Assembly: GCA_028288995.1 (NCBI GenBank)
Contig: JAQGHF010000004.1
Location: forward strand, 57,204 to 121,203
From: Candidatus Saccharimonadota bacterium
Lineage (GTDB): Bacteria > Patescibacteriota > Saccharimonadia > Saccharimonadales > Saccharimonadaceae
Length of the DNA stretch: 64,000 nucleotides
Direction of reading: 5' to 3'
Numbering within the stretch: the first letter of the stretch is position 1; every line of letters starts with the position of its first letter. The notes below the pieces were generated by a model that was not told the origin of the DNA, did not search any database, and saw nothing but the letters and a program-made list of their open reading frames with translations. The translations under genes and the position numbers were made by a program. Shown here one piece after another: positions 1,968 to 53,130 of this stretch.

Positions 1968-1975
1968 GTATTCCC

Positions 1976-2185
1976 CTATTCCTCGGCGTCGAATCGTTTC
2001 TTAACAATCTTGATATCGTTTTTGAGTTTCGTGAGATCTTTTTCGATTTCTTCCGCGAGTGCTTCTGCTTCTTTAAATTTATCGAGTGCTGTTTCGAGTT
2101 TAAATGATGCTCCTTGAAACCATCCGACTAATTCGGAAAGGTTAGTTAACTTATCCTGTACTGATTGGTTACTTTTGTCTGACAT
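1976..2185 (-). CDS. xseB: Exodeoxyribonuclease VII small subunit
   Basis: 69 aa, LETALDKFKEAEALAEEI pattern, directly downstream of xseA. Confidence 0.85.
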   Translation of the reverse strand: MSDKSNQSVQDKLTNLSELVGWFQGASFKLETALDKFKEAEALAEEIEKDLTKLKNDIKIVKKRFDAEE

Positions 2186-4296: not shown

Positions 4297-4343
4297 ACGG
4301 ATCATTATATAGCATCAGGTGTCGTATCAGGTATACTAAAGCT

Positions 4344-5522
4344 ATGCACATCGCCATCTTAGGTCGCCAGCCAGCCATCTCGATCGCCGAACTCGAACGA
4401 GTATACGGCGACGTTAGTTGGTTTTCTGAAATAAGCGCACTCGTTAATGCCGATTATATCGATATCACACGACTTGGTGGCAGCCAAAAAGCTGGTACCG
4501 TTGTTCTGCAAGTTCCTGGTCGCGATTGGCGAACAGCATCGATGAAAATCGTTCAGCACTACTCCGGGGCTTGGGCTCATAAAGAGGGCAAAATCACTCT
4601 TGGTATCAGTGCCTACGGATTTAATGAAGGTCCACGCGATATTCAAAAAACAGGTCTTGTCCTAAAAAGTAAACTAAAGTCGACTGGCACGAGCCTGCGC
4701 TTGATCCCAAACCAAGAATCTGTTCTTTCGACCGCAACGTCGCATCACAATAAACTTGGACTATCTGACAACAAAGTGGAACTTATCGTCGTGAAGGGTC
4801 AATCTGGCATCATCATTGCTGAAAGTACCGGTGCCCAAAACATTACCGCCCTCGCCGCTCGTGACCAAGGTCGTCCAAAACGCGATGCCTTCGTGGGTAT
4901 GCTTCCGCCAAAGCTTGCACAGATCATGATTAATCTTGCAGGACCACTCACTGCCGATCCAGACGCCGAACTTAAGCAGCCGCGTATCCTCGATCCATTC
5001 TGTGGCACCGGCGTTATTCTGCAAGAAGCCGGTCTGATGCGTTACGCTGTCTACGGCACTGACCTTGTAGAAAAAATGATCGACTTCTCTAGGACTAACC
5101 TCAAGTGGATTCAAGAAAAAGATAACCTCGACCTAAACGTTACACTACAGGTTGGTGACGCGATGACAACAACATGGGATATGCCTATCGACGCCGTTAT
5201 TGCCGAAGGCTACCTTGGACAACCGTTTAGTGCACCGCCATCGAACTCAAAACTTGTCGAAGTTCGTGGCAACACCAATCATATCCTTTCAGAGTTCTTA
5301 AAAAACCTGGCCAACCAAATTAAACCTGGCACGCCAGTCGTGCTTGCCGTTCCAGCTTGGAAAGATATCGACGGTCGCTTCACTCACCTGCCACTCATCA
5401 CAAAAGTTGACGAACTCGGCTACGAATACATCCAAATGCGCAACGTTCGCCCCGACCAACTACTTTATTTCCGCCCCGACCAAATCGTCGCCCGCGAAAT
5501 TCTTGTTCTCGTCAAGAAATAA
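4344..5522 (+). CDS. Trm11-like SAM-dependent (probably RNA) methyltransferase
   Basis: GMLPPKLAQIMINLA, ILDPFCGTGVILQEA, GTDL...M, EGYLG. Confidence 0.8.
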   Translation: MHIAILGRQPAISIAELERVYGDVSWFSEISALVNADYIDITRLGGSQKAGTVVLQVPGRDWRTASMKIVQHYSGAWAHKEGKITLGISAYGFNEGPRDIQKTGLVLKSKLKSTGTSLRLIPNQESVLSTATSHHNKLGLSDNKVELIVVKGQSGIIIAESTGAQNITALAARDQGRPKRDAFVGMLPPKLAQIMINLAGPLTADPDAELKQPRILDPFCGTGVILQEAGLMRYAVYGTDLVEKMIDFSRTNLKWIQEKDNLDLNVTLQVGDAMTTTWDMPIDAVIAEGYLGQPFSAPPSNSKLVEVRGNTNHILSEFLKNLANQIKPGTPVVLAVPAWKDIDGRFTHLPLITKVDELGYEYIQMRNVRPDQLLYFRPDQIVAREILVLVKK

Positions 5523-8547: not shown

Positions 8548-9777
8548 CTACTGTAGCAGCGCCTTTGCTGCATCAAGTTGAGGATCACGTCCGGCATTGA
8601 TATCGTCAGTTGAGATCGAGACCGCTTTATCTGGTGCAATGCCTTCTTTTGAGATGTTCTTGCCGTTTGGTGTGTACCATTTCGCAATTGTCACCTTCAG
8701 CTGTGCGCTATCTGGAAGCCCGATAAGTTTTTGGACACTTCCCTTACCAAACGTCTTCTCACCGACAAGTTTTGCCGTACCGTAATCTTGCAATGCGCCG
8801 GCGGTGATTTCACTTGCGCTTGCGCTGCTGGCGTTCACCAGAACAACCGTTGGGAGTCCAGCCAGGATTGGATCTGTGCCTGATTTTAGTTCGTCGACAA
8901 CTTTACCGTTGGTTTTTTCAGTCACGACAGTCTTATTGTTTTCCCATAGACCAACAACGTCCTGTGCGGCCGTCAGATAACCGCCACCGTTGCCACGAAG
9001 GTCAAGGATGACTGACTTTACGTTCTGACTCTTGAAGCTCGCTGCAGCTGACCGTGCGAGCTGACCAGTCTGGTCATCAAATCGAGAGATGGTCATAATA
9101 CCAATACCGCCAGACACAGTACTATAGACGCTTGGATTCGTTACTTCTGCACGGGTAATGGTAAAGTCTTTCGTTTCGGTGCCACGTGTCACCGTAATCT
9201 TCACAGTTGTACCAGCATCGCCACGGATCTTCGATACAATAGAGTCAATAGCATCTGTTGAAGCAACCGTGGTGTCGTTAATCTTTGCGATCACGTCACC
9301 AACAGCCATACCGGCTTTTTCAGCTGGATTATCGGCCAGTACTCGAATCACTGTAATCTGATTGTTGCGAAGGCTGAGTTCTACACCGATACCGCCGCCG
9401 ATAGTACCCGTCAGATCCTTATTAAAGTCACTTGCCTCTTTTGCGTTGAAATAGAGCGTATACGGATCACCGAGTGAATTAACCATCCCCTTGTTTGCCG
9501 CTTCAATCAGTGCTTTATCATCAATCGTGCCATCATAGTTCGCTTTAAGCGCCTGGTACGTCGCCTGAAGGCTTGATGTATCGAGTGTGCCAGCATACGC
9601 CTTGATACCAAACGCAGGTGCGATGGTGCTTATAATCTGGTTGTTGAATGTTCCGGTGATGTAGCCAAGTCCCAGGATAAAGATAAGTCCAATAGCAAGA
9701 ATTGATCCTGGAATACGGCGTGCATTTGTTTCTCGTACTTTTCGGACACGTCGTGGTATTAGTGAATGCTCGGCCAT
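8548..9777 (-). CDS. S41 C-terminal processing protease (CtpA-like) with PDZ domain
   Basis: DPYT, GIGV PDZ, LDLRGNGGG, SASASEI, TFGKGSVQ. Confidence 0.93.
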   Translation of the reverse strand: MAEHSLIPRRVRKVRETNARRIPGSILAIGLIFILGLGYITGTFNNQIISTIAPAFGIKAYAGTLDTSSLQATYQALKANYDGTIDDKALIEAANKGMVNSLGDPYTLYFNAKEASDFNKDLTGTIGGGIGVELSLRNNQITVIRVLADNPAEKAGMAVGDVIAKINDTTVASTDAIDSIVSKIRGDAGTTVKITVTRGTETKDFTITRAEVTNPSVYSTVSGGIGIMTISRFDDQTGQLARSAAASFKSQNVKSVILDLRGNGGGYLTAAQDVVGLWENNKTVVTEKTNGKVVDELKSGTDPILAGLPTVVLVNASSASASEITAGALQDYGTAKLVGEKTFGKGSVQKLIGLPDSAQLKVTIAKWYTPNGKNISKEGIAPDKAVSISTDDINAGRDPQLDAAKALLQ

Positions 9778-29488: not shown

Positions 29489-30244
29489 TTAAAGGAGTGG
29501 ATTAATAAAGAGGAAGTAGAACGCAATGCCGTTTTTGATCATGTGTAACACGATCGATGGCCATAGTCGACCGGTCTGAATACGGAGCAAACACAGGATG
29601 ATACTAAGCGCGAAGACATCAACACCAACATTCCATTCGAAGTGAACAATGCCAAATAAAAGACTGGTGATAAGGATCGATGCCCAGACAGGAACATACT
29701 TTCGGAGCTTTCCTAACAGATAACCGCGGAACAAAATTTCTTCCGAGACAGGTGCAATGATAACGAGCGTGACGAATGCCAAAATGTATTCATAGCCGTG
29801 ACTGAGACCAGAAAAGCCTGTGTTTTGCACTTGATTGACGTTATAGAACGGGAAGTGCGCAGCGATCGATGTCAGGACAAACGACAGAAGTATATAGACA
29901 ATAAACGCAGCTGGCGCGAGTAACAAATCTGTCCACGTTAGGTGATGATCAAAGCCAAGTTCTTGTTTCGATGTCCGATATTTCATCACCAGCCACGGAA
30001 GTCCGATGACAATGCCAAGTGACAGCAGATAAATGACAATAGATCCAATCGTTTGAATCGACGACTCATCAATATTTTTTAGAGGAATTTTTAAGAAGTC
30101 TAATAGATACAGAAGCAGCCCGACAATCACCTGCGCCACCATGAATCCAACGAACACCCATACAGGGAGCGCAAGGGCCATCCACGACTTGAATCCCTGT
30201 GGCTTTACAAAGAGTTTACTTAAAGAGTTTCGCCACATCACCAA
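29489..30244 (-). CDS. CPBP (Abi/CAAX) intramembrane glutamic endopeptidase
   Basis: APVSEEILFRG, FGIVH, SIVLHMIKN. Confidence 0.92.
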   Translation of the reverse strand: MVMWRNSLSKLFVKPQGFKSWMALALPVWVFVGFMVAQVIVGLLLYLLDFLKIPLKNIDESSIQTIGSIVIYLLSLGIVIGLPWLVMKYRTSKQELGFDHHLTWTDLLLAPAAFIVYILLSFVLTSIAAHFPFYNVNQVQNTGFSGLSHGYEYILAFVTLVIIAPVSEEILFRGYLLGKLRKYVPVWASILITSLLFGIVHFEWNVGVDVFALSIILCLLRIQTGRLWPSIVLHMIKNGIAFYFLFINPLL

Positions 30245-37584: not shown

Positions 37585-38385
37585 TTAGATCGCTGTACCA
37601 ACGCGGTTGAAGACAAGAACTAATACAGCGATAATACTCAGTGTAAAAAGAAGGGGCAAAATAATATCACTGGTACGAATTTTTTGGTGATGATAAAACG
37701 AGTCGTATGACTTATATCCAACGAAGCCAATCAAGACTGCAATAATCGAGACTTGTGGCACCAGAAGACTTGTCACGACCGGGAGAGAATAGGCAATCGC
37801 CCAGTGGTATGCGACCCAACCGATCTCAGCAGAAATAATACTCCATGTCAGGCTGAGGAATAATGCGTGTGTTTCGTCGTCATATGTATTAAGGATGTGG
37901 TTTGCCGCACTATAGCCAATCAACCACATACCGACAACGACAATAGATGCTGGCCAGTTAAACGATATCGTAAAGAGTGCCGCTGTACCAAGGAGGACCG
38001 CAATCCCTGCCTGTGCAGCAACGTAACTTCGCTTTGAGCGAGGCTTAATAATAAGCAGCCACACGATGTAGAGTGCGGTCGCAACACCAAGAAGGATGAA
38101 CTTTCGGAAATCGGTAAGGTTTGATGTATCGATTGTATAGAGGTGCAGCACAACACTGACGCTGACGATGATATCAATGAGGTTTGAACGAATATTCACA
38201 AACCAATACCTTGCGCGAACAGCAAGCACGCGCCACTTACTAATAAGCACGAGACCCAGCGCCAACGGAATCGATTCGGTATAGTGAATCACGACAACCA
38301 ACGCCACTGCGAAAGCGACGTTAAGAACCGTGTATACCACTTCACTCACAAATGAGCGACGTCGAACTAGTTTCAAGAACTCCAT
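37585..38385 (-). CDS. Polytopic membrane protein of unknown function
   Basis: About 8 hydrophobic segments; TATAAT box just upstream. Confidence 0.7.
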   Translation of the reverse strand: MEFLKLVRRRSFVSEVVYTVLNVAFAVALVVVIHYTESIPLALGLVLISKWRVLAVRARYWFVNIRSNLIDIIVSVSVVLHLYTIDTSNLTDFRKFILLGVATALYIVWLLIIKPRSKRSYVAAQAGIAVLLGTAALFTISFNWPASIVVVGMWLIGYSAANHILNTYDDETHALFLSLTWSIISAEIGWVAYHWAIAYSLPVVTSLLVPQVSIIAVLIGFVGYKSYDSFYHHQKIRTSDIILPLLFTLSIIAVLVLVFNRVGTAI

Positions 38386-38415: not shown

Positions 38416-40074
38416 TTATTGAGCTGGACCAATAATCACAACGAAATCGGTTGTTCCTACGACGCTGACTGGAGGCGTCGTCGTCAGTAGTGTCACACCG
38501 TACAGTTGTTTAAGCTTTGCAGCAGTCAGTGGCTTGTTTTTCGCAACTTGATAGATAGTGACTGCAGGATAGGTACCACTTGGCGCATTATCAACACTAT
38601 CAACAGTGAATCCCTTAGCGATCAACTTATCTGCTTCAGATTGTGCCATACCTGCTGCTGAACCACCATTCAGTACCATGACGTGCGGATTTTCTTTGAC
38701 AAAAGGTTCCTGGGTGATCATCTTGTTTAAGTATGCCTGCAGATCACTATACTGATATTGACCCTGTACCGGTTGGCCAGATCCATCGAATATTGCTTCG
38801 CCTGTTTTGTGGAGGTCGATTGAGGTGATCTTGTCTGATGGAATATCTTTTGCAAGTCCCATAAGGGTACGGATTTCTTTCGTTTGAATGTTCGTGCGAA
38901 GGTTCTTGCCCAGTGCATCAAGCAATCCGCTCACCGAACCAACGTTCGTCAACACACCGGTACTTAGTGCCTTTTCACGGATTGCTAGGAGAATCTTCTG
39001 TTGGTTACGTTCACGGTCAAAGTTCGACTGTGCCAGTCCGTATGTCGGCATGGCATCACCACGAGCCTGCGCAAGGTAGAGCGCGTGTTCGGCATCAAGT
39101 GTCTGATTGCCTGGGTTATAGTCGATAAAGTGACCATTTGGCGGACAGACGGTTTTACGTTTTGCGTAATTAGGACCGCACTTCCAGTCAAAGTTGCTAT
39201 CCATAATACCAATGTTTGGTTGCTGTCCCTGACCCTGGTCACCTTCGATATTAACAGTAATGCTGCCCCCAATTGCGTTGACAACGTCACGCATTACCGT
39301 GTAGTTAACGTGGACACCATACTGGATATCCATACCGACAATATTGCCAATAAATGCTTGTGTCTTCGTCAAACGATCTTGTTCCGAAGCATCATCGGTA
39401 CCGCTGTTCGCACAACTAAAGTACACGTTGATCTTTCCTGAATAGCCAGAGACACACGCTTCGCCATACTGCACCACGAGGTCTCGTGGAATACTAAAGG
39501 TAAAGGCGTCCTTTGTCGTCTGGTTCACGCTCAGTACCATAATCGTGTCTGTTAGATTTGCTCCTTGGTGACCCGGGTCATCTTCCGACGTACCAAGAAT
39601 CAAGAAGTTGCTTCGTCCATTTGCATCTTGCTTCAATGGTTCTGTCTTTACCAAATCAAGAAAACTTCCCTTAAAGACAGAGTCACTGGCATTTATGGCC
39701 TTAAATACAAGGTAACCACCAATCGCGAGGAAAATAATAAGTAAGCCGATCAGCACCCATTTAATAATGCGTCGAGCTTTGCTCTTTGGCTTCTTATTAG
39801 CTTTCTTATCACGGCGTTTTTCAGCACGGCGTTTTCGGCGACTACCACGCTCTCCATCAGGGTCGTCTATTTCACGAAGTGAATCATCGATATCAGATCG
39901 ACCGATAATTTTGCTTTCACGAGGAACGCCAACCACTTCCCTAGCATCACTGTCTCCAGTGTGGAGTGATCGGTCAATCGGTTCTTCTTTTTCTTCGTTG
40001 TGAAGACTCCCAAGTTGGGCGCCGGGACGACGTGGAATAAAACCATCAATGGAAGTTTGTGTACGCTTCTTCAT
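38416..40074 (-). CDS. LCP family glycopolymer transferase with C-terminal LytR_C domain
   Basis: NFLILG, TDTIMVLS, SIPRDL, KIN, YLAQAR, DFDRERNQQ-like segment, VMVLNG. Confidence 0.92.
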   Translation of the reverse strand: MKKRTQTSIDGFIPRRPGAQLGSLHNEEKEEPIDRSLHTGDSDAREVVGVPRESKIIGRSDIDDSLREIDDPDGERGSRRKRRAEKRRDKKANKKPKSKARRIIKWVLIGLLIIFLAIGGYLVFKAINASDSVFKGSFLDLVKTEPLKQDANGRSNFLILGTSEDDPGHQGANLTDTIMVLSVNQTTKDAFTFSIPRDLVVQYGEACVSGYSGKINVYFSCANSGTDDASEQDRLTKTQAFIGNIVGMDIQYGVHVNYTVMRDVVNAIGGSITVNIEGDQGQGQQPNIGIMDSNFDWKCGPNYAKRKTVCPPNGHFIDYNPGNQTLDAEHALYLAQARGDAMPTYGLAQSNFDRERNQQKILLAIREKALSTGVLTNVGSVSGLLDALGKNLRTNIQTKEIRTLMGLAKDIPSDKITSIDLHKTGEAIFDGSGQPVQGQYQYSDLQAYLNKMITQEPFVKENPHVMVLNGGSAAGMAQSEADKLIAKGFTVDSVDNAPSGTYPAVTIYQVAKNKPLTAAKLKQLYGVTLLTTTPPVSVVGTTDFVVIIGPAQ

Positions 40075-40177
40075 AAATACTTACCCTACTATACCCGACC
40101 AAGCTTAATTTATGAAGTATGACATAAGCATATTTAATGTAGAGTCCACCTGCCCCGTGATATAATTGACCAAGTTA

Positions 40178-40783
40178 ATGGAAGCAACCTATTTCACTCG
40201 CCACCCGTTTGCAAAAGACATCATTGGAATTGTCATTTTTATTGTCTGCGTCGTTATCGGCACGATTCTTATCAACACATTCGTATTCCGCAGCTTTAAC
40301 GTGGTTGGTCCAAGCATGGAGTCAACACTCTACACCGGCGATCGGTTGATCGTCGACCGCTTACCTGTCACCTGGGCACAGCTTCAAAATAAAACCTACA
40401 CTCCAAAGCGTGGTCAAATTATCGTTTTTAAAAACCCCCACTACAGCGTAGGTACTGAGGATGAATTTATCGTCAAACGTGTTATCGGTCTTCCTGGTGA
40501 GCACGTCGTGCTAAAAGATGGTCACTACACCGTCTATAACAACCAATTCCCGAATGGCTTTAATCCAGACGACAATAATCATGGTGAACCAGGTTCTCCA
40601 ACCAGTGGCGAAGTCGACCAAGTTGTTCCTGCCGGCGAGATCTTCGTTTCTGGTGATCACCGCCAAGGCAACTATTCTTACGACTCACGTAACGGGCTGG
40701 GAACGATTCCACTATACGATGTGATTGGTCCTGCTGAACTTCGTATTTATCCGTTCAATAAGATCCGAACATTCCCGACCTAA
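40178..40783 (+). CDS. lepB: Signal peptidase I
   Basis: GPSMESTL, IVKRVIGLPG, GDHRQGNYSYDSR; ATG 40178 preferred over TTG 40166. Confidence 0.93.
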   Translation: MEATYFTRHPFAKDIIGIVIFIVCVVIGTILINTFVFRSFNVVGPSMESTLYTGDRLIVDRLPVTWAQLQNKTYTPKRGQIIVFKNPHYSVGTEDEFIVKRVIGLPGEHVVLKDGHYTVYNNQFPNGFNPDDNNHGEPGSPTSGEVDQVVPAGEIFVSGDHRQGNYSYDSRNGLGTIPLYDVIGPAELRIYPFNKIRTFPT

Positions 40784-43631: not shown

Positions 43632-44555
43632 CTAGATCGAGCCACCACCGGTCGCAAAGACGATAACCAGCGCCAAGCCAACCGTTCCAGCTAGCGTATA
43701 CATCCCGTGATGGAGTTTCCAACTCCGTCGCCACGCAACCGGAAGTTTGTTTCGATAGTGATGCGCTGCAATGGCAACCGCACCGACGAGCGTCAGCAAC
43801 GCTAAGGTTCCTAGCGTTGCTGGAGTCAGCGATTGTAGCGCCGTTCCAAAGTATGTCAGCGGGTTTCCAATCCCTTGTTCAATCGGTGCCGCATAGACAA
43901 TAGCTGGTTTGCTATTTTTCACACCCTCAACCGCTGCCGTTGCTGGAGCACCGTAATACGCCACAACAAGCGTCGTTGGGCGACCATCAAGGGTGCCGTC
44001 TACCACCGCAAGTCCGATGTCCTGATATTTGGTGTTCAAAATATTTGCTCGGTGCGTTGGCGATGCCATCCACGCATCCACGGTCGCTTGTGCGGTTGCA
44101 TAATTCTTCGCGAGATTCTCGCCTGCGACGTCATAATTATAGCCCGCATCCCCTAACCACTTCCATGGCGTTACTCCTGTTGGTGAGGTATGCGCCCAGT
44201 AATTATTCACAAACATATCTTTTGCTTTCGCAAAGGCTGCGTTATTCAATGCGTCGTTTACTTTCAAGTTTGGCAGTGATGACTGTGCGCGTGCAGTGTT
44301 TGTGTCAGTCAAAAGATCACTGGCACTAATACTCGACACACGACCGAGTACTTCAACTCGTCCCGAAGAGACAAACCCATACGCAAGCTGCATAAGTACA
44401 GCCAACACTAATACAGCCGTTATACCATGGAGTCTGACCAAATGTGGTCGGTAATGGTTCCCTTTATGAGGGACCAGTGCATGCTTTAGGTGTGTACGGA
44501 CTTGTGTTTGAAGTGTTGTCTTTTTATGACTACTGCGTTTTTGTGTTGTTCTCAC
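43632..44555 (-). CDS. CAP/SCP domain membrane protein
   Basis: KAKDMFVNNYWAH, AGENLA, WMASPTHRANIL; TM segments at both ends. Confidence 0.9.
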   Translation of the reverse strand: MRTTQKRSSHKKTTLQTQVRTHLKHALVPHKGNHYRPHLVRLHGITAVLVLAVLMQLAYGFVSSGRVEVLGRVSSISASDLLTDTNTARAQSSLPNLKVNDALNNAAFAKAKDMFVNNYWAHTSPTGVTPWKWLGDAGYNYDVAGENLAKNYATAQATVDAWMASPTHRANILNTKYQDIGLAVVDGTLDGRPTTLVVAYYGAPATAAVEGVKNSKPAIVYAAPIEQGIGNPLTYFGTALQSLTPATLGTLALLTLVGAVAIAAHHYRNKLPVAWRRSWKLHHGMYTLAGTVGLALVIVFATGGGSI

Positions 44556-44625: not shown

Positions 44626-47523
44626 CTAAGCTTGTCCTTCGTCTCGACGACGAATCGCAGCGATGATGTACCAAGCAATAGCAGCAAGTGCAGCGATAAT
44701 CAAAATCCACCAGTACCACGCAAGTCCAAAGATGGTTCCCTTGTTCGCATCCGAGTTAACTGCGGCAGCGGCAAGTTTGTTGTCAGTGACGCCCTTTACG
44801 CTAGTGTCACCTGTTGGTAAGGTGTCAGTGGTTGCACCAAGGACAGCTGCGGCAGCAGGGTTAGTGATGATTGGAGTCACAGTGGTTGTTGGTGTTGTTG
44901 CGGGCGGAGCAACAGCAACAATCACGTCTGCAGATTGAGTCGTTGAGTTACCGTTTACGTCCGCAGCAGTGATTACAAATGAGTAAGTTGCATTCGGGAG
45001 AGCTACGGGTACAGTAAAGCTAAATGCACCGTTATTGTTTGTCACTGCAAAGTCAGCTCCATTGAAGGTTGCGAGGAGCGTTGCGTTACCATCATTTACC
45101 GTACCAGTAATCGTTGGCTGATTACCAGTTATGTCAGTCTGTGGAGCAATCGTAACAGTTGGAGCTGTGTTGTCGATAGTAATAACTACTTCACTGGTTG
45201 TGCTGTTACCAGCGGCGTCAGTACCAACCAATGTTGCGATGTATGTGCCGCTCGCTACGCTAGTTGTGTTCCAGTCGTATGATGTGAAGCTCGTGCCACT
45301 ATCGGTAGCAAGTGGCGTTTGACCGGTATTACCAATCGAAAGTGTGTATGAGACTGCATCACCAGTTGTACCCGTAATAGTAACTGGTTTATGATTACCA
45401 AATACCGCACCGTTTGAAGGTGTTGAAATTGTCACCGTTGGTGGTGTCTGATCGATCACAACCGTTCCAACTGATTCAGGACCAGCTGGGCTTCCGGCAT
45501 TATCAAGTGCACGAACGTGAAGTTGGTATGTACCAGCAGAAGGTGCTGTTGTTGCAACACTTGTTGCTGTCACGTCGGTCCAATCCGTAATAATCGTGCT
45601 TCCATTTGTGAACTGGTACTGGTATCCCTTTACACCAGAGGCATTAGCAGCAGGTATTGGCAGGTCAGTTGCAGCAGTCCAAGTCCAGTTGCTTGTGAGG
45701 CTGTTAGTTAGCGCTGTTGTCGTTGGTGTTCCGGGAGCAGTTGGTGGTGTCTGTGGTGTTGAGAAAGCAGGCGTTGAAACAATTGCGTTACCAGCAAGGT
45801 CTCGCACGTTGCTGACACCCCATAGTTGTTCACCAGAAACATACCAGCCTAGAGTCGTAAAGCTAACAGTTGCCGTTTTTGTCGCGGCATCATACGTAAC
45901 GTCAGCGTGACCAGTCAGTGGACCTGAACCACCAGCACCAGGCCAGTTAGCGAGGAAGTAGTTTGCTGGGTTTTGAGCATCAGCAACTTGCACTGCTTCA
46001 CTATAGTGAACTTTGAAGCTTGTACCAGCCGAGCCGACAATCGGGAATTCTAATGTCGCGGTTGGCTTTTGCGTGTCAAGAATGACAGACCAGATGTCGC
46101 TCCACTGACTATAGTTTCCAGCAGCATCTTTTGCACGGACTTGGTAGAACCATGCGCCGTCCCCTGCACCACTAGAGTGGATCATAGACGTCGCAAGTAC
46201 ACCAGAGTGCCAAATGCTGGCACCATTCAATACTTGATTAGAATCACGTGAAGGATCTTGTGATGCTTGGAATTCATAAGTAAGTGGTGACGCATCGACA
46301 GCATCGTTCCAGTCGAAATCAAATTCATTTGTGTTAAGAGAAGCTCCGTTTGACGGCAATGCTAATACTGGTTTGGTTGGTGCAGTCGTATCAACAGTGA
46401 CACCATTAATAGCACTCCAATCACTCCAGTTTCCGTAGTTATCACCGGCACGAACCTGCCAGTAGTAGGTTGCCTGTGGTGTGCCATTATTATGACGAGT
46501 AATCGTTGTTGCACCTAATTCGTAATTTGATGCAGTATCGCTGGCGTCTTGGTATATCAATGCGCCGAGTGTTGTTGCATCAACCTTGGTGTTAGAAGTA
46601 CGGTACTCATACTTCGTCGCACCCGTTACCGCACCCCATGTCATTGAAAAGTTTGGATCGTTTGTGACGACACCATCTGCTGGCGTTAAGTTTGTTGGAG
46701 CATCAATATCTGAAGCCTTAATGTTGATAGCTAAGTGATTTGGAGACCAGCCAGCATCAGATATAAGACCACCGCTATACCCAGGGTACGTCGTATCCCA
46801 GTACATAGTGTCAGTATTGTAGTCTGTCCCGGTGCTTGGTCCACTCGTTGGAAGGCTGACGTTCAAAGAATCATAAGGACCAGTTGAACCAATTGGGTGA
46901 ACACCGAAAGTACTGGTATCGTAAGCAACTGTTGCGATCACATCAGTCGGCAGTACAGCAGCGTTCGCTGTAAAATCGAAATCAACATTAAATGCTTTTC
47001 CGTTATTACAGGTTGCAGTCGCAGCGTCGTACCACTTGCCAAGGTCAGTACCGCTACAGTGAGTAGGATCTGCTGAAGGTCGGTAGAGGGCATTAACGGT
47101 CTGGGTTTTGGTTGTAATAAGTGTATCGACAGTTCCATCAGGATTAACTGCATAGAGATTCACTGTTACAGGATGAGCAAACGTTGCACCGACGGCGCTG
47201 ACGCAGTCATTTGTGCTCCAAGTACCTGTTTGACAAGCCCATGAGCTCAAACTCACGGTGACAGTATCAAGATGTCGACCACTCCCCGCAAGTGTCAGAC
47301 GGTCGCCAAACTCCTTAGTTGAAGTCGCTTCATACCCAAGACTTGGATAATTAGCAGACTGAGTAGCGGGAATACCTCGATACACATAGCTACTGGTTAC
47401 CGCATCTGCCTTTTGGCTAAATAAAAACGGCACACTGGCCGTAAGAGTACTCACCACTAGCATAGCTGCTAGCGCAAAATTTGTTAGTCGTTGGGTCCGT
47501 TTGCTCGCAAAAAACTTCATCAC
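44626..47523 (-). CDS. Large surface protein with FN3/Ig-like repeats and a C-terminal membrane anchor
   Basis: Signal peptide; repeated W-x-V-R-A-x-D-x-x-G-N and D-x-T-x-P-T linkers; Thr-rich stalk; TM + RRR. Confidence 0.88.
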   Translation of the reverse strand: MMKFFASKRTQRLTNFALAAMLVVSTLTASVPFLFSQKADAVTSSYVYRGIPATQSANYPSLGYEATSTKEFGDRLTLAGSGRHLDTVTVSLSSWACQTGTWSTNDCVSAVGATFAHPVTVNLYAVNPDGTVDTLITTKTQTVNALYRPSADPTHCSGTDLGKWYDAATATCNNGKAFNVDFDFTANAAVLPTDVIATVAYDTSTFGVHPIGSTGPYDSLNVSLPTSGPSTGTDYNTDTMYWDTTYPGYSGGLISDAGWSPNHLAINIKASDIDAPTNLTPADGVVTNDPNFSMTWGAVTGATKYEYRTSNTKVDATTLGALIYQDASDTASNYELGATTITRHNNGTPQATYYWQVRAGDNYGNWSDWSAINGVTVDTTAPTKPVLALPSNGASLNTNEFDFDWNDAVDASPLTYEFQASQDPSRDSNQVLNGASIWHSGVLATSMIHSSGAGDGAWFYQVRAKDAAGNYSQWSDIWSVILDTQKPTATLEFPIVGSAGTSFKVHYSEAVQVADAQNPANYFLANWPGAGGSGPLTGHADVTYDAATKTATVSFTTLGWYVSGEQLWGVSNVRDLAGNAIVSTPAFSTPQTPPTAPGTPTTTALTNSLTSNWTWTAATDLPIPAANASGVKGYQYQFTNGSTIITDWTDVTATSVATTAPSAGTYQLHVRALDNAGSPAGPESVGTVVIDQTPPTVTISTPSNGAVFGNHKPVTITGTTGDAVSYTLSIGNTGQTPLATDSGTSFTSYDWNTTSVASGTYIATLVGTDAAGNSTTSEVVITIDNTAPTVTIAPQTDITGNQPTITGTVNDGNATLLATFNGADFAVTNNNGAFSFTVPVALPNATYSFVITAADVNGNSTTQSADVIVAVAPPATTPTTTVTPIITNPAAAAVLGATTDTLPTGDTSVKGVTDNKLAAAAVNSDANKGTIFGLAWYWWILIIAALAAIAWYIIAAIRRRDEGQA

Positions 47524-47656
47524 ACACTCCTTAGATTATTTCTACGAAAAGACTGCCCACGACGCTGGTCTTACTTAAACACAACTCTCTCAACTTTTGT
47601 ATTTTTCTTAACTTTACCATCTTCACGACATACTAGCAATGAAATTTAAACTAAAT

Positions 47657-48232
47657 CTAAGAATGTTGAGCGACTCGTCGATGCGTCTGAAACCTCTCCA
47701 TAACGAGGCGTCCTAACACGACAATTGCAGCAATCGCCAACACCCACCAATACCAGGCAACACCAAAAATCTTCCATCCCTGCGAACTTGGCTGCAAGGG
47801 TGTCTGGATCGCAGCCCCAAGAACAGCAGCATCACTTTTGCCTCCAATGGTCGGCAAACTATAGCTGACAAAATCCCGTGACATTGCTGGCATGGTACTT
47901 TTTGCGTCACTTACAGGCACAATAGTAGGCAGCTGTTGATCAGGCATATTCACTGCGGTAAAAGATGTAGTAGCAGGTTGTGAAGCAGGTTGGTTCGAGG
48001 GTGCCGTCGGAGTCGCAGCTTTATTTGAGGGACCTGTCTCCGCAGTTGTTGACTTACCTGATCCAGACTCAGATGCTGGAGTCGGGGTTTGTTGAGCAGC
48101 AGGCGCAGGCTGGCATTGAACACCCAACAACCCAACGACACCACAAGTCGTCTTATATAAAAGACTCTCGGCCTGAGTAGGTCGAGAGGAAGCTCCAGAG
48201 ATGATAGCTGATACAAGCATAACACTTAGCAA
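47657..48232 (-). CDS. Small exported Ser/Thr/Pro-rich protein with a C-terminal anchor like the neighbouring adhesin
   Basis: Signal-like N-terminus, CGVVGLLGVQC, low-complexity stalk, IFGVAWYWW-TM-HRR. True start may lie further upstream (see findings). Confidence 0.75.
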   Translation of the reverse strand: MLSVMLVSAIISGASSRPTQAESLLYKTTCGVVGLLGVQCQPAPAAQQTPTPASESGSGKSTTAETGPSNKAATPTAPSNQPASQPATTSFTAVNMPDQQLPTIVPVSDAKSTMPAMSRDFVSYSLPTIGGKSDAAVLGAAIQTPLQPSSQGWKIFGVAWYWWVLAIAAIVVLGRLVMERFQTHRRVAQHS

Positions 48233-48353
48233 AAATATCGTGATTTTTGCTCCTCGCAGGATTGGTGTCGCACGATTTCGCTGCTTGATAACTGTCCTCC
48301 CTTTTCAACGCACTACTAGTAGTACTTTGCTCTACCAGTATACCACAAGCAGC

Positions 48354-48746
48354 TTAAGCGGGAGAACCTTCACCCCTTTCAAGGGCATGAATCCGTTCAT
48401 GATCAAGACCATAGTAATGGGCAATTTCGTGCCACAATGTACGTTTGACCTGCGCGTATAATTGCTGGGAATCTGTAGCAATCATCATCATTGAGTGTTT
48501 AAACAACGTGATTTTATCAGGCAAGACGAAGGTGTAATTGCCGCCACGTTTCGTCAATGGAATACCTTCGTATAGTCCAAGTAGGATATTCCCCTCACGC
48601 AGCCCAGATTTCTTAATCTGATATTCGTCGGGGTCATCGGCATATAAAATCGCAACGTTGTTTAAGCCCTTAATGTATTCTTGGGGCAGTTCGTCCATAG
48701 CCTGGCTAATCAGGCGATCAAATTCTTCGTCAGTAAGTTCCATCAA
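48354..48746 (-). CDS. Minimal zincin-like metallopeptidase
   Basis: LLGLYEGIP, PDKITLF, WHEIAHYYG (HExxH). Confidence 0.88.
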   Translation of the reverse strand: MMELTDEEFDRLISQAMDELPQEYIKGLNNVAILYADDPDEYQIKKSGLREGNILLGLYEGIPLTKRGGNYTFVLPDKITLFKHSMMMIATDSQQLYAQVKRTLWHEIAHYYGLDHERIHALERGEGSPA

Positions 48747-48762
48747 TATACTTAGTATAGTT

Positions 48763-48987
48763 CTATTGATCCGAAAACGTAAGCTTTTCAGAATCCTTTT
48801 TTAAGTCGTTCATCACCATGTCCCACTCTTCATCAAGCACAGATTCATCAATATCTGCTTCCAGATCAATGGTTTCATCATGTTCGTATTCGTCTAACGG
48901 GCTAACGCTATCATCGTCAGTTGGCTCAACGGGTTGTAGTTGGAGGAATTGTAAAATAGACATATGTTTGTATTTATTTAATAACAT
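48763..48987 (-). CDS. Small acidic hypothetical protein
   Basis: 74-aa Asp/Glu-rich ORF filling the gap. Confidence 0.5.
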   Translation of the reverse strand: MLLNKYKHMSILQFLQLQPVEPTDDDSVSPLDEYEHDETIDLEADIDESVLDEEWDMVMNDLKKDSEKLTFSDQ

Positions 48988-49770: not shown

Positions 49771-52700
49771 TTAGTTCTTTTGAAGGCTTAGTTGAAGCGT
49801 TTTGCCTTCAATTGTCAGCGTTTCAGCGTGCGCATATTCGCCGGTTGAGATTGCCCCCGCTAATGTTTCAGCCGCAATTGCTGATCCAAATTCTGTAATC
49901 GCTTGCGCCAGTTCTTCATCTTCAGTCGTGAGGCTGAGGTCAATATGATCGTCAACGTTCAAGCCCGCATTTTTACGAGCTGCCTGTGCGTAGCGAATGA
50001 TTTCACGAGCGTAGCCTTCGCGTTTTAATTCTGGCGTTATTTCAAGGTCGAGCGCTAACTCGTTACCCTGAATAACTTTTTTGACATTCAATTCTTCAAT
50101 CAGGACATCTTCGAAGTTTACGAACTCACCAAGTGTCGGCACCGTAATGCTCGCAAGCGGTTGGCGAATCTTCATCTTTGATGACGCACGAATGCTAAGT
50201 GCCTGATTGACGTACTCGCGAACGGTTTCCATGTCTTTGACGACTAACTCGTTGATGTGACCAACCTCTGGCCAATTTGTGAGGTGAACACTTTCTTCAC
50301 CGGTGAGATTACGGTACAGTTCTTCAGACAAGAATGGCACAAATGGAGCCAAAGCCTGGCTAAGACGAACTAGTACGTAGTGGAGCGTTTGGTAGGCATT
50401 ATTCTTGTCGGTATCGTCCTCCGATTTCCAGAAACGGCGACGTGAACGGCGAACAAACCAGTTACTCGCATCGTCGATGAATGGCAAGATCGGCTTCACG
50501 GCATTTGGAATATCGTAGCCGTCCATGTTCTTTTCAATCTCTTCGATAAGTTGGTGCAACCGACTGACGACCCATTGGTCGAGTGGGTTTGTGAGGTTTT
50601 CTGACGGGTCTTCGAGCTTGCCGTCTTGACTTGGAATGAACTCCCAGCCATCAACTTCAGCATACAGCGTAAAGAAATCGTACATGTTCCATACCATGCT
50701 GAGTTTTCGCGCGACGTCCCCCACTTCCCTGTCTTTCAGGGCAAAATCTTCACCGGAAAGCAGTGGGCTTGAAAGCAGTGTAAAGCGAAGGCTATCAGCA
50801 CTATACTGATCCATCAATAGGTTCGGATCGGTAAAGTTGCCCTTGCTCTTACTCATCTTGAGACCGTCGTTACCTGCGACATTTCCAGTAACAATCACGT
50901 TCTTAAATGCGTTGTGACCAAATAAACCGACGTTCACAGCGTGCACATAATAGAACCAAGCACGAACTTGACCAACGTACTCAACGATAAAGTCACCCGG
51001 GAAATTAGCTTCAAATTTTTCAACGTTTTCAAAAGGATAATGGAACTGCGCGAATGGCATTGAGCCAGACTCAAACCACCCATCGAGGACTTTGTCGATA
51101 CGTGTGTAGTGCACACCATCGAGGTCAAATTCGACGTCATCAACCCATGGGCGGTGATAATCTTCAAGTTCGACGCCCGAGAGTTCTTTTAGTTCAGCGT
51201 AGCTTCCGACCACTTTGACGAGTTCGTTGCCGTCTTTGTCAGTTCCCTTCCAGACTGGCATTGCCGTTGCCCAGAATCGGTCACGTGATAAGTTCCAGTC
51301 GGGTGCAGTTTCAATTGTTTTTTCAAAACGACCGTGTTTGATATGCGGTGGGAACCAATTAATGTGTTCAGCGTTCTCGTCGAGCATCTGCTGGCGCTGG
51401 TTATCAATATTAAAGAACCAACTTGGGTGCGCGCGGTACATCAAACGATGCCCAGTACGTGGATTGTGTGGATATTCGTGACGAATATAATCAATTTTCC
51501 ACACAACGCCGCGTTCTAATAAGGTCTTGGCGATAGTTTTGTTAATCGCCCACACTTCCTCACCAATCCAGTCACCTTCGGTGTACACACCGTATTCATC
51601 AAGCACATGAACGATTGGAATGTTGTTTTCTTTTGCGAAGATAAAGTCCTCTTCACCGTAAGCGGGTGCAAGGTGCACGATACCGGTACCAGATTCGGTC
51701 GTCACGTAATCGGCTGACCAGACTTTGTGGGCGTTTTCACCGCGATCTGCGAAGAGTGGCTCGTATTCGAGACCAACAAGCTCATCGCCCTTGAGGCTAC
51801 GCACAATTTCATATTCTAGTGGCTGATGTTTTTCGTCGGTAAATACTTTTGCAGCAAGATCTTTGGCGACAATCAATTGTTCATCACCAATCTTCACTTC
51901 GACATATTCCACTTCACTATTTACTGCGAGTGCTACGTTAGCGGGAAGCGTCCATGGCGTTGTTGTCCACGCAAGCAAAGAGCTACCAGAAAGGCTATCG
52001 TCAACGATGACACCCTCGGCTAATTGCTTTACTCGACTCTCAATTTGCGCACGTGCATCACGATTTTTCTCCCAGCTTTCACCGCGAGGATCGAGAACAT
52101 TCCACCATACGACGTTGTCAGCATTCAGCCAATCAGGAGTTTGCTCTTTTTCGGCAATATTTACGACAAGATCGTACTGCTGCAGCATGTCTTCAGTAAG
52201 TTTTTGACGTTTGTGACCTGTTACATCAACCCCTACCTCTTCCATAGTTGCCGTCGTTTTAATACTGCCTGGCTTCAATTCACCCAGTATGTCTTCGAGC
52301 GCAACGAGTGTCGTTGCCTCTTCCCAGTGCGCGTCAGGATTGACGCCCGCAGACTCGGCACTGGCTGTTTCTGTGAAATGATTGTAGAAACCCTGAGCAA
52401 AGTGCGAACGACCAGCATTTGAGTAACAGACGAAAAGCACTTTCGCCTCTTTCGACAAATTTGCGGGTTTAGAGTGGTTCTTTAACTTGAATTTCACATA
52501 CACGCTCGGATCCGTGACATTCACATACGCCCCAGCATCCATCGTCACTTCAGCTTTTGAAAGTGGTGTTGCCCACTGCGTGTCATACATAAGGACGCGT
52601 TCACCTTCGTAGATTTTGCCTTTTTCGTAGAGTTCTTTGAATGCCCACCAGACTGACTCCATATAGTCTTTGTCCATCGTGCGGTACGCGCCTTTAAAGT

Positions 52701-53130
52701 CGACCCAGCGACCAATGCGGTCGATTGTATCTTCCCAAAGCGCAGCGTTTGAGACCATACTTTCACGGGCAGTCGTAATGTAATCAGCAAGGCTAATCTT
52801 CTCACCCACGTCGTGACGACTGGTAATACCGAGTTTTTTCTCGATAAAGTTTTCAGCTGGTAGTCCGTGTGTATCCCAACCCCAGACACGCTCGACATGC
52901 TTCCCCTTCATCGTTTGGTAACGCGGCACGGCATCTTTCACAATCGAACTAAGGAGTGTTCCATGGTGCGGCACGCCGGTAATAAACGGAGGACCATCGT
53001 AAAAGACATACGAATTATCTATCGGTCGTTGATCGACTGATTTTTCGAAAGTTTTGTTATCTTTCCAGTAACGAATAATGTCTTTTTCGTATTCGAGTGC
53101 GCGGCGGCGTGTGCCTGATTTGAATTTCAC
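49771..53130 (-). CDS. ileS: Isoleucine--tRNA ligase type 2 with an inserted LMW-PTP/ArsC-like domain
   Basis: FYDGPPF, GWDTHGLP, WTTTPWTLPAN, WNLSRDRFW, GQVRAWFY, KMSKS; GTG start with SD AAGGAG. Confidence 0.96.
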   Translation of the reverse strand: MKFKSGTRRRALEYEKDIIRYWKDNKTFEKSVDQRPIDNSYVFYDGPPFITGVPHHGTLLSSIVKDAVPRYQTMKGKHVERVWGWDTHGLPAENFIEKKLGITSRHDVGEKISLADYITTARESMVSNAALWEDTIDRIGRWVDFKGAYRTMDKDYMESVWWAFKELYEKGKIYEGERVLMYDTQWATPLSKAEVTMDAGAYVNVTDPSVYVKFKLKNHSKPANLSKEAKVLFVCYSNAGRSHFAQGFYNHFTETASAESAGVNPDAHWEEATTLVALEDILGELKPGSIKTTATMEEVGVDVTGHKRQKLTEDMLQQYDLVVNIAEKEQTPDWLNADNVVWWNVLDPRGESWEKNRDARAQIESRVKQLAEGVIVDDSLSGSSLLAWTTTPWTLPANVALAVNSEVEYVEVKIGDEQLIVAKDLAAKVFTDEKHQPLEYEIVRSLKGDELVGLEYEPLFADRGENAHKVWSADYVTTESGTGIVHLAPAYGEEDFIFAKENNIPIVHVLDEYGVYTEGDWIGEEVWAINKTIAKTLLERGVVWKIDYIRHEYPHNPRTGHRLMYRAHPSWFFNIDNQRQQMLDENAEHINWFPPHIKHGRFEKTIETAPDWNLSRDRFWATAMPVWKGTDKDGNELVKVVGSYAELKELSGVELEDYHRPWVDDVEFDLDGVHYTRIDKVLDGWFESGSMPFAQFHYPFENVEKFEANFPGDFIVEYVGQVRAWFYYVHAVNVGLFGHNAFKNVIVTGNVAGNDGLKMSKSKGNFTDPNLLMDQYSADSLRFTLLSSPLLSGEDFALKDREVGDVARKLSMVWNMYDFFTLYAEVDGWEFIPSQDGKLEDPSENLTNPLDQWVVSRLHQLIEEIEKNMDGYDIPNAVKPILPFIDDASNWFVRRSRRRFWKSEDDTDKNNAYQTLHYVLVRLSQALAPFVPFLSEELYRNLTGEESVHLTNWPEVGHINELVVKDMETVREYVNQALSIRASSKMKIRQPLASITVPTLGEFVNFEDVLIEELNVKKVIQGNELALDLEITPELKREGYAREIIRYAQAARKNAGLNVDDHIDLSLTTEDEELAQAITEFGSAIAAETLAGAISTGEYAHAETLTIEGKTLQLSLQKN

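Follow-up and report, generated by a model that had tools for sequence, protein, structure and literature searches.

A tryptophan-rich C-terminal module at a conserved surface-protein locus of Saccharimonadales looks like a dedicated membrane anchor

The window analysed here is a 64,000-nt stretch of DNA from a soil Saccharibacterium, in which two neighbouring genes encode proteins with similar C-terminal tails. Along the reverse strand, which carries all features given below for this locus, the gene for a small carrier (47657..48232, 191 aa as listed) is followed by that for a large carrier (44626..47523, 965 aa) and, 70 nt downstream of the latter, by the gene for a CAP/YkwD-domain membrane protein with three membrane helices (43632..44555; Pfam CAP, E=3.7e-19). 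These three genes are tightly adjacent, with gaps of 70-133 nt. On their upstream side lies the gene for a cytoplasmic Zincin_1 protein with an HExxH motif (48354..48746; Pfam PF06262, E=1.4e-24), a conserved neighbour with a homologue in 35 loci. A scan for promoters and terminators gave nothing above shuffled controls, and a search of sequencing runs returned soil DNA metagenomes only, with no RNA.

The large carrier begins with a Sec-type signal peptide (residues 1-41, 47401..47523; read from the sequence by inspection) that ends in an AxA-like 'ADA', continues through a mosaic Ig-like ectodomain with matches to Pfam Big_13, Big_3_3 and Big_7, and passes via a Thr/Pro linker into the tail module, which comprises residues 885-965 plus the stop codon (44626..44871; tail HMM E=5.4e-30). 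Within the tail are an [VI]LG motif, V894-L895-G896 (44836..44844); a second motif of the V[KEQ]G type, V909-K910-G911 (44791..44799); the core IFGLAWYWW, residues 931-939 (44707..44733); the predicted membrane helix FGLAWYWWILIIAALAAIAWYIIAAI (44653..44730), based on hydropathy and on an AlphaFold2 helix with pLDDT 83-96 that follows a disordered stretch; and an RRR cluster (44644..44652), placed on the cytoplasmic side, with the protein ending five residues further on. A sequence search of the PDB with the 965-aa protein produced a single weak match (E=0.004). When compared with its orthologues, the large carrier displays mosaic similarity, with the N-terminus and the tail conserved. Residues 1-44 are 86-91% identical in the proteins of loci L003 and L007, as against 43-49% for the ectodomain; overall, ectodomain identity is 43-59%, with partial coverage, compared with 71-90% for the CAP neighbour, and the signal peptide and tail are likewise far less diverged. 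A rapidly diversifying Ig-like protein at a conserved locus makes this a candidate adhesin or antigen locus.

The small carrier (tail HMM E=3.6e-17) consists of a signal peptide, a C-x10-C loop, a Pro/Ser/Thr-rich stretch and the tail module (47657..47863), the latter containing TIGG, an AAVLGA motif (47816..47824), the core IFGVAWYWW (47744..47770), a membrane helix and HRR. By inspection, the signal peptides of both carriers have a K/R-rich n-region, a hydrophobic core and an ADA or TQA site. For the small protein, AlphaFold2 predicts an N-terminal helix and a C-terminal helix (residues 150-189) only, and structure prediction for the small protein and the tail yields a membrane helix and disorder only. 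For the small gene, a start 57 nt upstream of the listed one is probable: a strong Shine-Dalgarno sequence precedes a non-canonical ATC there (GGAGG, 6-nt spacer, ATC; 48287..48300), and the in-frame upstream peptide is conserved in orthologues. In the CAP protein, a VLG motif lies 14 residues past the first membrane helix (44343..44351), with V69 and G71 invariant and L70 kept in at least 90% of 24 orthologues, and an AAVEG motif (43923..43937), of the form AV[EQA]G, stands about 35 residues ahead of the second. V-x-G motifs are present in the large, small and CAP proteins, and related V[LE]G motifs near the CAP helices had already been remarked upon in an earlier note on this DNA.

That note had also described the ends of the 965-aa and 191-aa proteins, which re-translation of the ORFs confirmed, and had held that nothing but the tail is similar between them. 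BLASTP agrees: the tail alone aligns (21/66 identities, E=5e-8), and nothing else falls below E=0.9. In a six-frame translation of the whole 64-kb window, W[YF]WW occurs twice only, both times at these tails. The two carrier genes being adjacent, the shared tail might be an accident of recent local duplication or gene conversion, or else hydrophobic low-complexity sequence, and as such meaningless in itself; indeed, unrelated 49-aa Oscillospiraceae proteins have a similar helix start, LGLAWYWW. However, the tail DNAs of the two genes differ at many synonymous sites, e.g. GGACTTGCGTGGTAC versus GGTGTTGCCTGGTAT, and the identity of small to large tails is not raised within one genome (0.28) over that between genomes (0.29). 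Both observations rule out recent duplication or gene conversion and indicate an old paralogy under purifying selection. Given, in addition, that the module is conserved in 885 representatives and in more than 40 species, with stalk motifs outside the helix kept too, an accidental origin is very improbable.

Those representatives come from an exhaustive profile search of 1.84 billion representatives, in which 885 cluster representatives matched at E<=1e-3 and 149 at E<=1e-10. It replaced word-indexed protein searches with tail alignments, which had returned 4 and 7 short proteins only, since their index favours short proteins. Among the matches listed, the tail ended five residues or fewer from the C-terminus in all 150, in proteins of 80-1441 aa. 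The tail is a conserved module, some 80 residues long and strictly C-terminal in position, and it is far from restricted to this pair; occurrence in the pair only is what the earlier note had named as a ground for refuting its reading. In the tail that the two carriers share, [VI]LG comes first and V[KE]G second; a single membrane helix then starts with G-x-A-W-[YF]-W-W, and RRR closes the protein. In a per-position profile built on 152 tails (representatives), VLGA, near which the earlier note had proposed to look for cleavage, is not the best-conserved element. It is G-x-A-W-[YF]-W-W, itself the start of the membrane helix, that is invariant: G(-3), W0, W2 and W3 are the same throughout, and A(-1) is found in 135/152. 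An [VI]LG motif occurs no more than 75 residues upstream of the core in 135/152 tails, most commonly at a distance of 40-44 residues, and 103/152 have two or more phi-x-G-x-[STDNE] motifs; these stalk motifs, outside the membrane helix, are conserved as well. Towards the end, R22 is present in 142/152 tails and R24 in 128/152, and the distance from core to C-terminus is 28-30 residues in 133/152. Strong conservation runs from end to end of the helix and on through RRR; an inner W/W belt is kept, as are small residues and Trp at defined helix positions. AlphaFold2 predicts one long, confident helix that begins about 10 residues before WYWW, the remainder being disordered. A motif of the [VI]LG type is also kept in distant lineages whose tails have no WYWW. 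No Pfam or NCBIfam model matches the tail, and literature searches for the tail motif or for a sorting signal of Patescibacteria found nothing relevant. The tail is apparently a so far undescribed C-terminal module, and 'dedicated membrane anchor' seems a better description of it than 'general sorting signal'.

The genomic distribution of the module is narrow. Across 56 genomes, nearly all of them Saccharimonadales and including a closed genome of 1.04 Mb, the exact core is found at one locus per genome, with one to three clustered carriers; copies that have diverged from this core may lie elsewhere in a genome. The locus contains one large mosaic Ig-like protein, none to two small tail-only paralogues and, directly downstream, the three-helix CAP-domain membrane protein, and its conserved neighbours are IleRS, the Zincin_1 gene and ParAB. 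One or more small paralogues are present in about a quarter of loci, with approximately 70-75% having none; where they occur, they form a conserved family with cytoplasmic ends of their own. The CAP gene is next, on the same strand, in 35/40 loci. In a sample found via the CAP gene alone, a tail protein lay directly upstream in 45/68 loci; the CAP gene persists at loci without the large gene, which weakens the case for CAP as a strictly dedicated partner. The earlier note's suggestion of a possibly undescribed sorting or anchoring signal therefore stands in part: a conserved, apparently undescribed C-terminal module of motif, helix and basic end does exist, but its use as a genome-wide system, with a linked enzyme, finds no support.

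The format itself does resemble that of cleaved sorting signals. PGF-CTERM, the signal of archaeosortase A and of archaeal S-layer glycoproteins, is well conserved and present in few copies; it and PEP-CTERM, the signal of exosortase, belong to Haft's TIGRFAM/NCBIfam families. As in these, the 152-tail profile has a motif at the start of a conserved helix, an Arg cluster and the protein end, with a Thr-rich stalk ahead, few substrates per genome and a substrate that is a major surface protein. The WYWW tail differs, however, in its motif, G-x-A-W-[YF]-W-W, and no homologue of archaeosortase or exosortase was detected in the window ORFs scanned, nor was there an HMM match. Several unrelated carriers scattered around the genome, which are characteristic of CTERM-type signals, were likewise not found with the exact core in the 56 genomes. 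With LPXTG/sortase signals (TIGR01167) the tail has in common the extreme C-terminal position, a Thr/Pro-rich stretch, a hydrophobic helix and a short basic end, as well as its occurrence on Ig-like surface proteins of a monoderm-type cell. In contrast to them, it lacks an LPXTG pentapeptide ahead of the hydrophobic segment and has its conserved motif inside the helix start, and it sits on one to three carriers at one locus, whereas LPXTG is found on many proteins around the genome; no sortase was seen among the approximately 40 window ORFs scanned, and the TIGR01167 HMM did not match. Two candidate sortase motifs, 'TLPTGD' in the 965-aa protein and 'SLPTIGG', were rejected, as neither is conserved in homologues; the 'LPTGD' of the former, some 27 residues upstream of the core, is absent from them. 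A motif followed by a membrane helix and RRR is also the make-up of MYXO-CTERM (formerly GC_trans_RRR), JDVT-CTERM and Synerg-CTERM, the signals of CPBP-type 'myxosortases', and a CPBP gene is present in the window; yet no WYWW tail contains a Cys or a Gly-Cys motif. Overall, no NCBIfam CTERM model or TIGR01167 matched the tails at E<=10, and no CTERM model matched the whole proteins at E<=1.

The CPBP/Rce1-like intramembrane protease, which the earlier note had located at 29489, adding that proteases of this family process some such signals, is indeed encoded there (29489..30244, reverse strand; PF02517, E=1e-22). Its best NCBIfam matches are the sorting-type proteases MrtJ and MrtS. However, it scores below every curated sorting-type cut-off (MrtJ, 51.7 versus 75 bits; MrtS, 50.8 versus 130; Mrt_core, 42.7 versus 100), and its gene lies 14.4 kb from the carriers, among housekeeping genes and adjoining RseP-type and ProRS-type genes, which disqualifies it as a linked processing enzyme. 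Sortase, exosortase, archaeosortase and rhombosortase were all absent from the approximately 40 of roughly 60 window ORFs that were scanned for families. The window also encodes, at 37585..38385, a conserved six-helix protein with no assigned family.

These data bear on whether the tail could be a cleaved, dedicated sorting signal (a 'WYWW-CTERM'), such that a membrane enzyme recognizes G-x-A-W-Y-W-W and/or [VI]LG and removes the helix. The ectodomain would then be released, or attached to lipid, cell wall or surface layer, with the small protein as a second substrate, and the enzyme might be some intramembrane protease, the genomic CPBP, a rhomboid or the adjacent CAP membrane protein. The tripartite format, the strict C-terminal position with its fixed short end past RRR, the occurrence of the tail on otherwise unrelated proteins, and the Thr/Pro-rich stalk ahead of it, as in sortase and archaeosortase substrates, all favour this idea, as do the affinity of the CPBP protein for MrtJ and MrtS and the retention of [VI]LG both in distant lineages without WYWW and, invariantly, beside the first CAP helix. 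Set against it are the one to three carriers per genome at a single locus, the lack of an adjacent candidate enzyme together with the distance and sub-cut-off scores of CPBP and the absence of sortase and exosortase from the ORFs scanned, the persistence of the CAP gene at loci without the large gene, which is unlike a dedicated enzyme, the conservation through the whole helix, and the lack of a match to any curated CTERM model. On balance, a cleaved sorting signal is unlikely.

Conservation that extends through the entire helix and RRR, at a fixed distance from the C-terminus, fits a part that stays functional, and not a mere recognition tag. The carriers also have the features of a plain type-I anchor, namely an N-terminal Sec signal peptide (by inspection) and one C-terminal helix whose positive charges lie on the inside. 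In our judgement, the chance is even that a hypervariable surface protein retains the tail as a type-I anchor, made up of a stalk and a helix with Trp belts. On this model, which is built from sequence features, Sec would export the carriers by way of their N-terminal signal peptides, and one unusually conserved helix would tether them to the cytoplasmic membrane in type-I topology. The helix would place a Trp/Tyr belt, G-x-A-W-Y-W-W, at the outer interface and a W-W/F pair at the inner interface, with small residues along its length; RRR would act as a stop-transfer cluster, followed by an end of only about five residues. Two short linear motifs, [VI]LG-x-x-T and V-[KE]-G-x-[ST], lie ahead of the helix in an acidic, Thr-rich stalk that is predicted to be disordered. 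The Trp belts may serve to resist pull-out or to pack helices. The module belongs to one syntenic Saccharimonadales locus at which the Ig-like ectodomain of the large protein is swapped and diverges fast, as might be expected of an adhesin or antigen, and the small tail-only paralogues are probably its neighbours within the membrane. However, cleaved sorting signals have exactly this format, with a motif at the helix start, a membrane helix, an Arg cluster and the protein end right after it, and PGF-CTERM signals are similarly well conserved and few in number. Moreover, the [VI]LG-type motifs, conserved in the stalk, invariant in CAP and surviving without WYWW, would also suit an enzyme recognition site.

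In the same class of organisms, the single C-terminal helix of the saccharibacterial envelope proteins PamC, PamD and PamR has been read as a permanent membrane tether; these, too, have a Sec signal peptide and an Ig/FnIII-type ectodomain (bioRxiv 10.64898/2026.03.03.709456). The Pam proteins, compared here by description, differ in being encoded at another locus. The neighbourhood shows that the present locus is not the Pam pilus operon of M. amalyticus, as the pam operon adjoins ATP synthase genes.

The tail might instead be mainly an assembly signal, by which the large protein, the small protein and perhaps the three CAP helices pack into a membrane complex or lattice, while the V-x-G motifs of the stalk bind a partner that the proteins share, for instance the cell wall or the CAP domain. 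The small residues and Trp conserved at defined helix positions, the tail-only paralogues that form a family with their own cytoplasmic ends, the closely spaced genes with no predicted terminators above chance, and the V-x-G motifs in all three proteins are compatible with such a role, as is the description of DalA, a bacterial CAP-domain protein, as peptidoglycan-binding (PMC10470522). Yet most loci are without a small paralogue, and no co-variation of small and large tails is visible. In the loci found via the tail, W at -7 appeared in the large or the small protein but never in both (Fisher p=0.001); this complementarity failed in the independent sample, as L093, L094 and L113, found via CAP, have both. 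Assembly as the main role is a possibility that we regard as improbable, and any partnership between the large carrier and its small or CAP neighbour is a tentative proposal. Less probable again, Saccharimonadia might have a dedicated system of sorting or processing that is new, in which an envelope enzyme, possibly the adjacent CAP protein with the same invariant VLG motif beside its own first membrane helix, would recognize [VI]LG/V-x-G and/or G-x-A-W-Y-W-W and shed or re-attach the surface protein, the tail-only proteins being co-substrates or regulators. Were that so, the format of VLG, helix and basic end in distant lineages without WYWW would be the ancestral signal, more widespread in Patescibacteria.

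In Saccharibacteria, which live attached to host bacteria, host range is likely to be determined by surface proteins; to our knowledge, little is known about how surface proteins are retained in these wall-poor, outer-membrane-free cells. The present analysis defines a recognizable, searchable C-terminal module and flags one conserved Saccharimonadales locus with a rapidly diversifying Ig-like surface protein. If the tail is processed, it would represent a new sorting system in a phylum with none described; if it is retained, it would exemplify a Trp-belt helix of unusual conservation, one that may withstand being pulled out by mechanical force. Either way, a family model of the tail would better annotate several hundred proteins now called 'hypothetical' or 'Ig-like domain-containing'.

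The C-terminal module shared by two adjacent surface proteins (the tail) is probably a C-terminal helix anchor in the format of a sorting signal, and it marks a surface-protein locus that is conserved across Saccharimonadales and evolves fast. In the window, it is encoded within three consecutive genes on the reverse strand, namely a small carrier ORF of 191 aa (47657..48232), a large carrier ORF of 965 aa that follows after a 133-nt gap (44626..47523) and, after a further 70 nt, a CAP-domain protein of 307 aa (43632..44555). Translation of the ORFs returned the two tail sequences as the earlier note had given them, and its statement that the proteins are alike in the tail only was confirmed by BLASTP, in which only the last ~66 residues align (pairwise E=5e-8) and no match outside the tail falls below E=0.9. 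W[YF]WW occurs twice in a six-frame translation of the whole window, both times at these tails. Many synonymous differences separate the tail DNAs of the small and large genes and, across the eight genomes that have both, small-versus-large tail identity is 0.28 within a genome and 0.29 between genomes, while small tails are 0.41 identical among themselves. The synonymous divergence and the near-equal identities rule out chance or recent conversion as the source of the likeness, which is an old paralogy maintained by selection on the protein.

The anatomy of the tail was assessed by a position-specific count over 152 sequences (150 listed by an exhaustive profile search and two from word-indexed searches), aligned on W[YF]WW and numbered from the first W as 0. 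G(-3), W0, W+2 and W+3 are invariant, which is partly due to alignment and search on these letters; conservation elsewhere was not so imposed. A(-1) is present in 135/152 tails, +1 is Y in 131 and F in the other 21, and the helix is strongly conserved at L+5, I+6, A+8, A+9, A+11, W+15, W/F+16, I+17 and A+20, after which come R+22, R+23 and R+24, with the protein ending 28-30 residues past the first W in 133/152. Upstream of the core lies an acidic, Thr/Asn-rich stretch containing two short motifs, [VI]LG-x-x-T (135/152 tails, most commonly 40-44 residues before the core) and V-[KEQ]-G-x-[ST]-[TD]; the I/V-F/L-G of the core is a third copy of their phi-phi-G pattern. Given the tail with a nine-sequence alignment and the small protein as a single sequence, AlphaFold2 returned for both a single long helix from ~10 residues before WYWW to the end (pLDDT 83-96), with the regions ahead of it at pLDDT <50. 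By inspection, both carriers have a Sec-type signal peptide at the N-terminus, and the predicted topology is type I, with the ectodomain outside, one helix and ~8 residues inside. Neither Pfam-A (2025) nor NCBIfam 20.0 has a model covering the tail, no match to it was obtained at E<=10 when whole proteins or tails alone were scanned, and full-text literature searches brought up no account of it.

The earlier note had considered that the motif might occur in this pair only, which is not so, as a nine-tail profile run over 1.84 billion representatives matched 885 proteins at E<=1e-3, 149 of them at E<=1e-10; each of the 150 matches listed, in proteins of 80-1441 aa, ends no more than five residues from the C-terminus. 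A scan for [FL]G[LIV]AWYWW across 185,579 species, each represented by a single genome, gave 56 confirmed loci, every one in a different genome and nearly all labelled Microsaccharimonas, Saccharimonas, Saccharimonadales or Saccharibacteria; the few labelled otherwise are probably mis-binned, since their synteny is the same. No genome of the scan, including the closed 1.04-Mb CP011211 and contigs of 0.7-0.9 Mb, yielded a second tail locus, and further scattered carriers, if common, should have shown, because the exact octapeptide is present in 83/152 representatives. By an HMM from the 152 tails, 36 loci have one carrier and 12 have two. About a dozen scan matches, comprising 49-aa Oscillospiraceae/Acetatifactor proteins and one Nonlabens protein, are unrelated and have only the helix start in common. 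These ~49-aa proteins (MFLGLAWYWWLVIVAALIISIPFKVKFMKWWSKRQQEKK..; L042, L046-L048, L051, L053 and L056-L058, from Oscillospiraceae, Acetatifactor and Eubacterium) have the LGLAWYWW helix start at their N-terminus, belong to no Pfam family and are otherwise unlike the tail; convergence probably accounts for the shared octapeptide.

The conserved gene order is IleRS, a 74-aa acidic protein, Zincin_1 (HExxH), the small carrier where present, the large carrier, the CAP protein, L21, ParA and ParB. CAP is the next same-strand gene in 35 of the 40 loci with sufficient sequence, and at least one exception reflects an ORF-calling artefact. Metagenome contigs were scanned with the CAP-protein alignment, to avoid bias from tail-based locus finding, and a tail-HMM protein lies directly upstream of CAP in 45 of the 68 loci with upstream room; all 80 CAP-based loci include 34 with one tail protein, 12 with two and one with three, and at one locus a second carrier lies downstream of CAP. 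At some of the remaining loci, Zincin_1 or IleRS abuts CAP, and the large gene is therefore absent from the locus. At the related loci L124 and L127, the protein upstream of CAP ends in another module, the two-helix 'IPAVGA..TEDWT..W.D.WT.L'; there and at L031 (1333..3198), a conserved end with two hydrophobic stretches (..IPAVGAxxAxLTxEDWTLxxxWxDxWTxL..) replaces the WYWW tail. In the most distant lineages (L134, L136 and L138/L139), the upstream protein ends 'EVLGAST..helix..K/R', without WYWW, and cores are degenerate at L090, L106 and L123. The [VI]LG-plus-helix-plus-basic format therefore predates the WYWW core and is more widespread; it may also reach further across Patescibacteria than does the present tail family. 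The CAP protein of these distant lineages is ~42% identical, and its neighbours (3..608, 1688..2923 and 4165..5433, respectively) end '..EVLGAST / SVLGAKTT .. helix .. K/R'. Between IleRS and the tail genes, the conserved pair consists of the very acidic 74-aa protein (48763..48987) and the 130-aa Zincin_1 protein (48354..48746), both on the reverse strand, the latter found in 35 loci. IleRS itself (49771..53130, 1119 aa) has an inserted low-molecular-weight phosphatase/ArsC-like domain at 52018..52440 on the reverse strand (PF01451 LMWPc; E=1.7e-9 over residues 231-371, exceeding the gathering score) with the motif VCYSNAGRS. The enzyme has much the same length in L005, at 1131 aa, and in L032, at 1118 aa, but only 955-977 aa in L001, L004 and L007.

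The large carrier contains Big_13, Big_3_3 and Big_7 Ig-like domains (Pfam) and is a mosaic against its positional orthologues. In the closest relatives (L003 and L007), identity is 86-91% over the first ~44 residues, and the tail is 68-79% identical, while the ectodomain aligns only piecemeal, at 43-59% identity; orthologues in L005 and L024 have only the signal peptide and tail in common with it, and those in L006, L013, L030 and L031 only the tail. In the same genomes, the CAP neighbour is 71-90% identical. Clusters of tail proteins at 90% identity are nearly all singletons, named, where the source gives any name, 'hypothetical' or 'Ig-like domain-containing protein [Candidatus Saccharimonadales]'. 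In P0001 (L001 10001..10899, 115 aa), a small-type signal peptide (MLGFVFVAVLTSGIFTRPTWAE) is joined directly to a large-type linker and tail, and a 5'-truncated CAP gene overlaps its end; given its location within the terminal 1 kb of a Logan contig, this is either an assembly chimera or a natural deletion variant without the entire ectodomain.

A possible but less probable reading of the tail is a dedicated sorting signal that is cleaved off, the format being that of known CTERM signals and [VI]LG behaving like a conserved recognition element. PGF-CTERM signals combine low copy number with a well-conserved helix, and the tail resembles them in both respects. As a candidate enzyme, the earlier note had pointed to a CPBP gene, which does exist (CPBP/Rce1-like, 29489..30244, adjoining an RseP-type M50 protease and a class-II aminoacyl-tRNA synthetase read as ProRS); it lies away from the carriers, and its best NCBIfam matches are sorting-type proteases that all fall under their cut-offs (MrtJ 51.7 versus 75, MrtS 50.8 against 130, Mrt_core 42.7 against 100). 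Neither this gene nor those for an S26 signal peptidase (40166..40783), an LCP protein (38416..40074), an S41/Ctp protease (8548..9777) or a conserved 266-aa protein with six predicted membrane helices and no Pfam or NCBIfam match (37585..38385, reverse strand) adjoins the carriers, and no sortase, exosortase, archaeosortase or rhombosortase was found among the ~40 window ORFs scanned. The six-helix protein, ~6 kb from the tail genes, has homologues in 29 of the related loci. The data are best fitted by a lineage-specific stalk-and-anchor domain that would be kept in the membrane and tether a single hypervariable surface protein together with its small paralogues, because the tail is limited to one locus, the whole helix and cytoplasmic stub are conserved, aromatic belts lie at both interfaces, no linked enzyme was found, and the C-terminal helix anchors of the Pam proteins of a cultured Saccharibacterium give precedent (10.64898/2026.03.03.709456). 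From general membrane-protein knowledge, the Trp belts of such an anchor might raise pull-out resistance or mediate helix packing.

The CAP neighbour consists of a basic cytoplasmic N-terminus, in which a VPHKGNxYRPHLxR motif is conserved, TM1, an outside CAP domain and two C-terminal helices, which are separated by a conserved AHxYRxKLPxxWRxSWxxHHG loop. Related motifs beside its helices, as the earlier note remarked, are indeed present: VLG lies 12-15 residues past TM1 (V69 and G71 invariant and L70 at least 90% conserved in 24 orthologues), and a less strict A-V-[EQA]-G stands after the CAP domain, ~35 residues ahead of TM2. This whole arrangement, from the basic N-terminus to the two C-terminal helices, is an unusual architecture and is seen at 43632..44555 (reverse strand) and in 39 orthologues. 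V-x-G motifs stand in helix-adjacent stretches of all three neighbouring envelope proteins, and none was found in a disordered juxtamembrane stretch of the other predicted membrane proteins of the window; they could serve in binding or modification, or act as a recognition site.

The small protein forms a separate family. Its signal peptide ends (S/P)RPxxAE, and it has a C-x10-C loop, a stretch rich in Pro, Ser and Thr, a PPLE..ELP motif and its own version of the tail ('P-phi-Q-A-S-x-E-G-W-K-phi-F-G') and of the short cytoplasmic end. The region upstream of its gene was compared between the window (48287..48300, reverse strand), L002, L004 and L005. In the window, a 6-nt spacer separates GGAGG (48300..48296) from ATC (48289..48287, reverse strand), and the gene seems to start at this non-canonical AUC; the equivalent codon is AUA in L004 and L005. 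Orthologues conserve the in-frame peptide KQRNRATPILRGAKITIF that precedes the listed TTG start, and this peptide provides the basic n-region otherwise missing from the signal peptide, and from the AUC start the small protein would be 210 aa long.
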